In this document: one piece after another, positions 23,616-23,790 of the stretch | How the letters are laid out: each line of letters starts with the position of its first letter | Numbering within the stretch: the stretch's first letter is position 1 | Made by a program: the position numbers and the translations under genes | Notes under the pieces: model-generated | Told to the model about the DNA's origin: nothing | The model's database searches: none | Seen by the model: the letters and a program-made list of their open reading frames with translations, nothing else | Source: an uncultured Clostridia bacterium | GTDB taxonomy: Bacteria > Bacillota > Clostridia > TANB77 > CAG-508 | Direction of reading: 5' to 3' | Length of the DNA stretch: 64,000 nt | NCBI GenBank assembly: GCA_944388605.1 | Contig: CALXJJ010000003.1 | Span: 3,091-67,090, forward strand

Positions 23616-23790
23616 AAACGGACAAATCTCGCTTTGCGAGAACTTTTCTCTACTTTTCTAACTTAACTATATATATTTAAGTTCTCGAAGAAGAGTAAAG
23701 ATTTGTCGACGCGAAAAATTGCATAGCAATTTTTCTGTGCAATGTTGTTTTTTATTGAATAAGAAAACTCGATTTTTCCTATTCAATAAA
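23616..23790 (+). repeat. copy A of a ~175-bp hairpin-rich intergenic repeat, starting immediately 3' of tRNA-Trp; an inverted copy lies at 45001-45185
   Basis: The reverse complement of 45001-45185 aligns to 23611-23790 at ~90% identity. Copy A carries a 10-bp tandem duplication (ACTTTTCTCTACTTTTCT). Internal hairpins: CTCGCtttGCGAG, GAGAACTT...AAGTTCTC, TATTGAATA...TATTCAATA. Confidence 0.8.

Follow-up and report, generated by a model that had tools for sequence, protein, structure and literature searches.

The window, that is, the whole stretch of 64,000 nucleotides analysed here, contains two copies of a hairpin-rich repeat in inverted orientation: copy A lies between a tRNA-Trp gene and whiA, and copy B lies behind a GerAC-like gene. 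We call the strand as written for copy A, which presents the core first, E, and its complement S. Read in the order of E, a unit consists of a ~128-nt core, a T-run (5-7 nt), a palindrome termed H and an A-run (5-7 nt), ~175 nt in total. The features are as follows.

23541..23615, + strand: tRNA-Trp (CCA anticodon, 3' CCA encoded), from ARAGORN and Rfam
23620-23792, + strand: copy A, limits set against 86 family members
23620..23747, + strand: copy A core, E orientation, GGACAAATC...CTGTGCAATGTTG, from the MAFFT alignment and the fold
23748..23792, + strand: copy A palindrome H and flanking runs, TTTTTT-ATTGAATAAGAAAA-CTCGA-TTTTTCCTATTCAAT-AAAAA
23795..23832, - strand: whiA bidirectional terminator-like hairpin (AAAAAAGCCTTAAA...TTTAAGGCTTTTTT), overlapping the whiA stop codon and 2 nt from H
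44996-45163, - strand: copy B, limits set against the family consensus
44996..45042, - strand: copy B palindrome H and runs, TTTTTT-ATTGAATAGGAAAAAT-CGA-ATTTTTCTTATTCAAC-AAAAAA
45043..45163, - strand: copy B core, lacking 10 nt of the family consensus (GAGGACTTTTCTAAC in place of GAGAACTTTTCTCTACTTTTCTAAT)
50848..50965, + (copy B's orientation): degenerate third relative, from the repeat search and the profile

The two copies in the window

Comparison with the family places the start of copy A, GGACAAATC, at 23620 and its end at 23792. The element thus begins 4 nt past the CCA of tRNA-Trp and not, as an earlier note on this DNA had stated, exactly at the tRNA 3' end. The tRNA-Trp promoter (TTGCAA-17-TATAAT) is at 23487-23515, and the whiA ORF, with Pfam WhiA domains, spans 23820-24677. 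The tRNA-Trp transcript must enter the element, and copy A adds 175 nt to the tRNA-Trp trailer; at another locus (L112), tRNA-Trp is directly followed by a terminator and the element is absent. The H of copy B begins 8 nt past the stop codon of the GerAC-like gene (43639-44988).

MAFFT alignment of 23616-23792 (+) with the reverse complement of 44994-45167 revealed 6 substitutions and 4 indels (10, 2, 1 and 1 nt) over ~173 columns, corresponding to ~96% identity outside gaps and ~90% when gaps are counted, and exact stretches of 45 and 25 nt are shared. A repeat search of the window recovered the same pair as four abutting inverted arms (I14, I3, I2 and I11) that are 89-96% complementary. It is confirmed that the pair is genuine, with a similarity far above chance. 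The ~175-bp repeat with a 90%-identical inverted copy reported previously is therefore real, but copy B occupies 44996-45163 rather than 45001-45185. Similarly, the ACTTTTCTCT-ACTTTTCT repeat, formerly described as a 10-bp tandem duplication in copy A, is the family consensus, and the 10 nt were lost from copy B. A profile built from 64 family members (nhmmer) matched copy A at 23619-23755 with 152.7 bits and copy B at 45164-45034 with 114.2 bits.

Folding of the two strands gave z scores of -5.0 and -6.6 against shuffled controls. The core of copy A folds into two hairpins, one long and interrupted (23621-23708) and one with a perfect stem of 10 bp, GAAAAATTGC-ATA-GCAATTTTTC, at 23713-23735. 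Of the three strong hairpins proposed earlier, the strong folding holds, but the first two are parts of the one long interrupted hairpin, in which GACAAATCT/AGATTTGTC closes CGCTTC/GAAGCG and GCGAGAACTT/AAGTTCTCG.

The third relative comprises an H-type palindrome (50848-50889), the central-hairpin module alone (50894-50965, TTACACTTCTTAGAAAACTT...AAGTTCTCTAAGAAGTGTAAAG) and a T-run, and is preceded by a fragment of a related module, AAGAACAAAAGCGACATGATTAAT, at 50821-50844. In total, the window holds about five element-related pieces. A decayed copy suspected behind the 6S RNA of the window scored no better than shuffles.

A dispersed non-coding family in uncultured gut Clostridia

We scanned one genome per GTDB species (185,579 species genomes, 596 Gb) for a 22-mer, AAGTTCTCNAAGAAGNGTAAAG, which has two free positions and fits all three window copies; about one match is calculated to occur by chance in 596 Gb. 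The scan returned at least 112 loci in at least 38 species-level MAGs, with well-conserved copies favoured by an exact 22-mer as bait. The earlier note had proposed a dispersed intergenic element family instead of an island and suggested counting further copies, and this number of loci supports its view. Among the matches listed, a single MAG has up to 12, and all matching genomes are MAGs labelled uncultured Clostridia, Bacillota, Eubacteriales or Clostridium sp., one of them being 'Candidatus Merdicola faecigallinarum'. Their sources are chicken, human and others. A profile HMM run on the listed loci detected at least 87 full-length copies in addition to truncated ones. At least 13 of the 112 listed matches lie within ~150 nt of a contig end, the usual mark of a repeat that breaks assemblies.

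A predicted long ORF encloses the element in only 1 of the 87 full copies listed. Clustering of ORFs of at least 100 aa from the 112 listed loci (up to 8 kb each) gave no recurrent neighbour family, only housekeeping paralogues. No promoter was found within the element, and upstream of 97 scored copies there was no positional peak that would indicate a promoter at a fixed distance. Rfam at the gathering threshold reported tRNA and 6S only for the whole window, and only noise for the element region at E<=10. There was no match in PLSDB plasmids or INPHARED phages (blastn) or in IMG/VR viral contigs (pattern scan), and no account of the family was found in the literature. Taken together, the family is non-coding, non-autonomous, common in a low-GC clade of uncultured gut Clostridia and previously uncatalogued. 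It breaks MAG assemblies of this widespread clade, and a profile would aid assembly, binning and annotation.

The core is highly uniform: nearly all columns, loops included, are at least 90% identical across 86 distinct copies, and compensatory change is almost absent. Its long hairpin is closed by GACAAATCT/AGATTTGTC, and its second hairpin is a perfect 10-bp GAAAAATTGC-NNN-GCAATTTTTC across the family. H is a near-perfect palindrome of ~45 nt with an invariant inner stem (ATAGGAAAA/TTTTCCTAT). Its outer 7 bp vary by copy (ATTGAAT, GTTGAAT, GTGGTAT, ATGGTAT, GTTGTAT and others), with the arms staying complementary, and several H classes occur within a single genome. Of 83 stems scored at the H position, a few of which are neighbouring terminators and not H, 48 are perfect, and the mean length is 20 bp. 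On the E strand, G.T mismatches in H outnumber A.C mismatches by 31 to 9, a count inflated by recurrent variants, which favours folding of the core-first strand; in the core, with an invariant G.T set aside, the corresponding counts are 37 and 40, without strand bias. No bias of C>T over G>A, or the reverse, was seen in unpaired columns, and the G.T excess of H is not accounted for by biased mutation. A terminator scan found terminator-like hairpins with U-rich tails on the E strand only.

The two ends of the element are dissimilar. The core end is ragged (GGACAAAT, AGAACAAAT and CTCTGACAAAT), and there are no terminal inverted repeats: GGACAAATC... and ...CCTATTCAAT-AAAAA (...TTCAAT-AAAAA) are not complementary, and all inverted repeats are internal. 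The hairpin near one end is H (AT-rich, ~20 bp), whereas that near the other is CTCGC-TTC-GCGAG, 9 nt from the end and, in copy A, at 23628-23640. A GTAG at the 5' side of the palindrome is missing, the H arms beginning with ATTGAAT, GTTGAAT, GTGGTAT and the like.

Core identity has a median of 0.92 inside single MAGs and of 0.91 across MAGs. Copies match a single consensus at ~93% identity, and the identity of host WhiA falls to ~55%. This star-like pattern, which exact-match ascertainment inflates somewhat, fits continued output from conserved source copies with decay of their offspring, and it is also in line with strong constraint. Truncation affects either end: seven copies have lost 5' sequence but keep the H end intact, and about ten are shortened at the opposite end. 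Where the left part of a copy differs, this is a plain 5' truncation beside ordinary genes, and the fragment at L109 is a remnant.

Other core types are built on a like plan, in which H is joined by a short GTCGCTTCGC motif, TGCACAC, a small hairpin (AATTTTAC/GTAAAATT) and a long hairpin with GAACAA.../...TTGTTC as its closing stem. They occur in strings with type-1 units, every unit headed by its own H, and H-core units of different core types form mosaic arrays at L013, L039, L077, L092 and L106. A mini-element of 62-64 nt sits within H, always at the same position, at five loci. Hence the host genomes carry nested hairpin repeats, like the pneumococcal BOX/RUP/SPRITE and the enterobacterial BIMEs.

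Insertion behind terminators in one orientation

With long ORFs as gene proxies and the listed matches as loci, the H-side gene has its 3' end toward H in 65 of 76 cases, and the core-side gene points away in 56 of 78. Between co-directional genes, 43 copies are in the S orientation and 4 in the opposite one. In 36 of 66 copies, H has a G+C stem-loop no more than 6 nt away, against 8 of 66 for the core end; in the examples read, the H-side stem-loops are terminators of the neighbouring genes. The layout in the S direction is therefore gene, terminator stem, T-tract, H, A-run, core, and then the next gene or its promoter. The family marks, and may modify, the ends of transcription units. In about ten copies, the next ribosome-binding site is only ~5-45 nt past the element, so the downstream gene there must be transcribed through it. 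Loci discordant between replication and transcription as the source of the orientation bias divided 7 versus 7. The position of the element is not conserved between genera.

The earlier note had seen the tRNA 3' end as a classic insertion hot spot. ARAGORN on all listed loci placed tRNAs close to very few copies; at L037 and L108, the neighbouring tRNA is the upstream terminated gene, and comparison of tRNA and element coordinates showed that copy A is alone among the 87 full copies listed in having its core end beside a tRNA. Because the recurring neighbour is the H-side terminator, which for copy A is that of whiA, the tRNA-Trp next to copy A is incidental, and we infer from the sequence that the whiA terminator was the insertion target. 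The closest WhiA relative (L115) was considered as an empty site for copy A; its identity ends abruptly in the middle of whiA, which makes it a chimera or a recombinant and unusable for this purpose. WhiA homologues other than that of L115 are at most 57% identical.

An all-against-all search of the flanks yielded two clean filled/empty pairs. L025 (filled) and L017 (empty) are collinear save for the element. The empty site reads ...GTCAAATTTTTTTAT|TATTGGAGG, and L025 has the same T-tract followed by H, A-run, core and then TATTGGAGG, with zero duplicated bases. In L017, a full-length Rfam match to L20_leader (E = 1e-6, below the gathering score, in the expected place) ends at this T-tract upstream of infC, and the L025 copy lies between the L20-leader terminator and the infC ribosome-binding site. 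This copy thus entered between the attenuator terminator of the L20 leader and the start of the essential infC-rpmI-rplT operon, within the operon's regulated leader, and is tolerated at this place. The second pair, L088 (filled) and L062 (empty), has a like geometry at another terminator, again without target duplication; four more candidate empty sites were too rearranged for reading. At the two empty sites, insertion occurred after a T-run without duplication, and the T-run is no defined tetranucleotide. These pairs prove that the element arrives by insertion.

Of the two runs that flank H, the T-run is internal to the element, whereas the A-run forms its outer edge on the terminator side. 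Their lengths are uncorrelated (r = 0.13), which fits the terminator-side run as a pre-existing target. A target duplication or a templated A-run was rejected on the same uncorrelated lengths. In three related MAGs, the element sits right behind the 6S RNA terminator with differing H classes and differing far junctions, which suggests repeated insertion at one terminator.

The window arrangement is present at junction A in 3 contigs (the window and two more) and, among 23 contigs read, at junction B in 10. Eleven samples, one common to L113 and L123 and another to L114 and L117, supplied thirteen contigs that are collinear with the window at an identity of at least 99.7%, with no indel in or near the elements. 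Both copies are fixed within the window species, which turns up in at least 119 index blocks of the public assembly collection. The earlier note had raised inversion of the 21-kb segment between the copies and proposed a search for both orientations in other assemblies. Inversion is physically possible, given the identical runs of 45 and 25 nt, but the 13 contigs have the window arrangement alone; the pair is a possible substrate and no inversion was seen, in short-read contigs from which a minority isomer could escape. More generally, the dozens of 90%-identical copies are potential recombination substrates, and none was seen acting here.

Known systems, rival readings and a possible mechanism

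The Correia (Neisseria) and ERIC (Enterobacteria) MITEs are 100-170 nt long, form long hairpins and are co-transcribed with their neighbours, with possible terminator or promoter activity. They have long terminal inverted repeats and, for Correia, TA duplications, whereas our element has neither terminal inverted repeats nor TA duplications. Of the 'MITE/REP-like family' suggested earlier, the dispersed repeat family stands, but the hallmarks of a MITE, terminal inverted repeats and target duplications, are missing. IS608 and ISDra2 insert on one side of a short target, with an orientation linked to replication. Our element resembles IS200/IS605 and their ORF-less derivatives (PATEs) in having no terminal inverted repeats, no target duplication and hairpins near the ends. 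It differs in that its end hairpins are unrelated, H begins right at the junction, the opposite end is ragged, and neither TnpA nor TnpB occurs close to copies at the listed loci (up to 8 kb).

Among Firmicute repeats, RUP has terminal inverted repeats and an IS630 parent, and BOX is made of A, B and C boxes; to our knowledge, none of BOX, RUP and SPRITE has been reported to insert precisely behind a host terminator in one orientation. The three are pneumococcal intergenic repeats that are modular, cluster and insert in one another, and SPRITE resembles a rho-independent terminator (PMC10969869). Our element is likewise a modular, clustered and nested intergenic repeat, but no sequence similarity was detected. 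The bacterial group IIC introns share the orientation of the upstream gene. They typically lie just downstream of terminator motifs, an inverted repeat and then Ts (PMC1702495). In contrast to these ~2-kb ribozymes that encode a reverse transcriptase, our element is 175 nt long, with no ORF and no Rfam intron domains.

REP/BIME of Enterobacteria, Pseudomonas and Stenotrophomonas are extragenic palindromes present in many copies, single or in mosaic clusters, at gene 3' ends and without MITE signatures (PMC3184786); their presumed RAYT Y1 transposase is encoded elsewhere in the genome as a single copy (PMC5581495). Our family shares with them the many-copy extragenic palindromes at gene 3' ends and the mosaic clusters with other motifs. 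However, its palindrome is AT-rich, 40-50 nt long and always joined to a conserved 128-nt core; it has no GTAG and exactly abuts a terminator T-tract; no RAYT lies near copies at the listed loci (up to 8 kb), and the host is a Gram-positive anaerobe clade. By these tests, the element has a REP/BIME- or SPRITE-like lifestyle and a group-IIC-like choice of target, and is not a classical MITE. Two further ideas were considered and rejected. An IS110/bridge-RNA origin does not agree with the species' only IS seen (IS110 family, L125), which differs from the element in sequence and target; as for an integron attC, the R'/R'' order is reversed, and most H variants misfit GTTRRRY.

We think that A and B are probably two fixed insertions of a ~175-nt non-coding, non-autonomous, terminator-targeting mobile repeat of REP/BIME- or SPRITE-like type; the two copies are merely family members that chance to be inverted. 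The data show that the unit sits directly behind the T-tract by which an intrinsic terminator ends, H being next to the terminator and the core downstream, in a single orientation relative to the terminated gene and with neither terminal inverted repeats nor target duplication, and that repeated insertions of the unit and its relatives pile up into mosaic arrays. Mobilisation would occur in trans, by a strand-specific, hairpin-recognising enzyme, for which the HUH/Y1 transposases of REP/RAYT and IS200/IS605 are the closest precedent. This enzyme class is conjectural because no candidate transposase was found at the listed loci (up to 8 kb each). As far as we know, REP/RAYT and IS200/IS605 are the sole well-studied bacterial systems that join a lack of inverted ends, a lack of duplication, hairpins and an orientation bias. 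In the S direction, that of the upstream gene, transcription would be let through, and the infC copy implies that this direction must be permissive; in the E direction, the modelled terminator-like hairpins followed by U-rich tracts could make the element polar. Polarity, strand-specific insertion or both may give rise to the orientation bias.

Several observations run against this mobile-repeat reading. HUH transposition does not usually leave an end as ragged as that of the core. The AT-rich H has no GTAG of the REP type, and the two ends lack similar hairpins, unlike those of IS200/IS605. The G.T bias of H favours the strand that is not expected to be single-stranded under the IS608 rule, and a core ~92% identical within and between species, against ~55% for WhiA, could mean a host-level function. 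Because of the ragged core end and the G.T excess in H, a retro-type mechanism and a functional-RNA reading each retain a low probability.

The element could instead be a host-selected cis-acting RNA or DNA module, a polar insulator and not a currently mobile parasite, which ends or processes transcripts coming from downstream (antisense to the upstream gene), passes sense read-through or stabilises 3' ends like REPs. We regard this as unlikely. In its favour are the conservation of the whole core over at least 38 species, with about equal identity within and between genomes, the terminator-like hairpin and U-tract on the core-first strand only, the tolerance in the infC 5' UTR, the invariant, fixed state in all contigs of the window species and the G.T bias in H; however, the empty/filled pairs show arrival by insertion, decaying copies are truncated on one side or the other, the core has almost no compensatory change, and the position differs between genera. 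Function and mobility of the element are compatible, and there is no either/or between them. That the copies are a multi-copy family of small-RNA genes, with copy A co-transcribed with tRNA-Trp, is highly improbable: the predicted structure is strong, copy A is preceded by the tRNA-Trp promoter and followed by the first terminator, and most copies end at a bidirectional-looking terminator, but this usually present terminator belongs to the convergent gene, the 97 copies scored have no promoter-like peak upstream, Rfam gives no match, covariation is little, and there are dozens of copies per genome, truncated members included.

A SINE-like retroelement, whose core-first RNA ends in H and the A-run and is reverse-transcribed from a nick in the terminator T-tract by an enzyme acting in trans, would account for a junction that is always at a T-tract able to pair with the A-run, for the ragged far (5') end with its seven 5'-truncated copies of intact H end, and for H mismatches of the G.T type that favour the core-first strand; group IIC introns, also retroelements, share the target habit (PMC1702495). 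We nevertheless hold this to be quite unlikely, as no reverse transcriptase occurs near any copy at the 112 listed loci (up to 8 kb each), the core-first strand has no promoter, about ten copies have lost sequence from the opposite end as well, the target duplication that target-primed insertion usually leaves is absent, and Rfam scans detected no intron domains. A cut-and-paste MITE derived from an insertion sequence with a DDE transposase would likewise be small, non-coding, multi-copy, hairpin-rich and intergenic. It is very unlikely here, given termini that are not inverted repeats of one another, two clean empty sites without target duplication and no related IS in the listed loci or in the phage, plasmid and viral collections, the IS110 of L125 sharing no sequence with the element. 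Finally, the A/B pair might mark an invertible 21-kb segment or a past inversion. The copies are inverted and share exact runs of 45 and 25 nt, most genes of the segment are on the + strand whereas its flanks have genes on the - strand, and whiA has lost hemW, the gene usually next to it and found behind it in L017, L025 and L115. This reading is hardly credible, since a single orientation occurs in the contigs that cover junction A (3) and junction B (10), reversing the segment would not restore whiA-hemW, and the family accounts for the pair without any rearrangement.

Within the terminator-targeting reading, it is improbable that the family represents a new kind of element that homes to terminator T-tracts, attenuators included, in a fixed orientation and without duplication, by a mechanism unlike that of known MITEs. 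Candidate mechanisms would be target-primed reverse transcription of a hairpin-plus-A-tail RNA, a bacterial analogue of SINEs, or the action of a hairpin-guided HUH enzyme that takes the stem-loop of the terminator itself as its signal. The significance of the family would rise sharply if its mobilising mechanism proved new, and identification of the enzyme could uncover a new mode of terminator recognition at the DNA level. Precise, one-orientation insertion beside terminators with neither inverted ends nor duplications is a habit that the family so far has in common mainly with group IIC introns.

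Copies of the element in the infC leader and beside 6S RNA

In one MAG (L025), the studied element separates the ribosome-binding site of infC from the terminator of an attenuator resembling the L20 leader (Rfam RF00558 match, 40.9 bits, E=1e-6), and the empty infC-leader site is present in a related MAG (L017). In three related MAGs (L017, L025 and L050), a copy of the element comes directly after the 6S terminator, with prmC-whiA next in line, and the gene order around 6S differs from that of the window.

Filled and empty sites, infC leader: L025 3147-3322 versus L017 6461-6595
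6S RNA gene: window 54472-54663, (-), Rfam 104 bits

Other repeat families

Besides the studied element, the window contains a second repeat family, termed type 2/3, of which pieces were located as follows.

2702-2830, type 2/3 piece
19974-20062, type 2/3 piece
21942-22114, type 2/3, complete copy
31214-31260, type 2/3 piece
32397-32520, type 2/3 piece

The long hairpin of this repeat is closed by AGAACAAATCGGAAAGCC.../...GGCTTTCCGATTTGTTCT. Upstream of it there is often a small hairpin, AATTTTAC-NNNN-GTAAAATT, and it is also often preceded by a GTCGCT(A/T)CGC motif and a palindrome of type H, the AT-rich palindrome of the studied element. In other MAGs, type 2/3 modules and the studied element are arrayed together.

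The H palindrome is itself the host site of a mini-element of 62-64 nt (TTTTGAAAATA...TTCACTTTGAGTTGCGTAACTTAAAGTTTCATAGTG), which occupies a single fixed position after TTTTTC and before (T)TTCCTAT; its insertion in H is possibly accompanied by a TTTC duplication. A further repeat consists of a hairpin, AAAAAGGGAAAATGAGTCCGTCCCC...GGGAATTTCCCTTTTT, adjoining a conserved AT-rich segment of ~100 nt (…TTTTGTATAAGCTAAATTTTCA…).

Mini-element: L009, L017, L072, L092 and L096 (e.g. L092 about 5270-5340)
Further repeat: L024 86-129 and 533-580; L108 3307-3350 and 3576-3612; L095 about 4100-4220

Gene calls near copy B

Gene calls at two places near copy B of the element recur in all ten other contigs.

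40831-42216 and 42197-42559, GerA-family germination gene, apparently split (461-aa and 120-aa ORFs)
45216-45379, (+), 54-aa ORF, hydrophobic, plausible ribosome-binding site

The two GerA ORFs overlap by 20 nt and both have GerA Pfam matches in public gene calls; the split is the same in 10/10 contigs. The 54-aa ORF, which comes directly after copy B on the core side, has no Pfam match and is a gene call in 10/10 contigs.

Differences among related contigs

Compared with window 23853-25135, the Logan contig L115 shows 99.8% identity across prmC and into whiA for ~620 nt from the start of that gene, beyond which identity falls sharply to ~70%; L115 then runs on into hemW, where the window has the element and tRNA-Trp. 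L115 represents an assembly chimera or else a recombinant strain.

In one sample of the window species, L125 1-1124 (corresponding to window about 54856-55980) carries an IS110-family transposase gene with DEDD_Tnp_IS110 and Transposase_20 domains, inserted at the start of a 279-aa unknown gene that is intact in the window and nine other contigs. The insertion is polymorphic at strain level and has no relation to the studied repeat. An (AT)n microsatellite at window 23000-23028 differs by 8 nt from L113, a contig of the same species.
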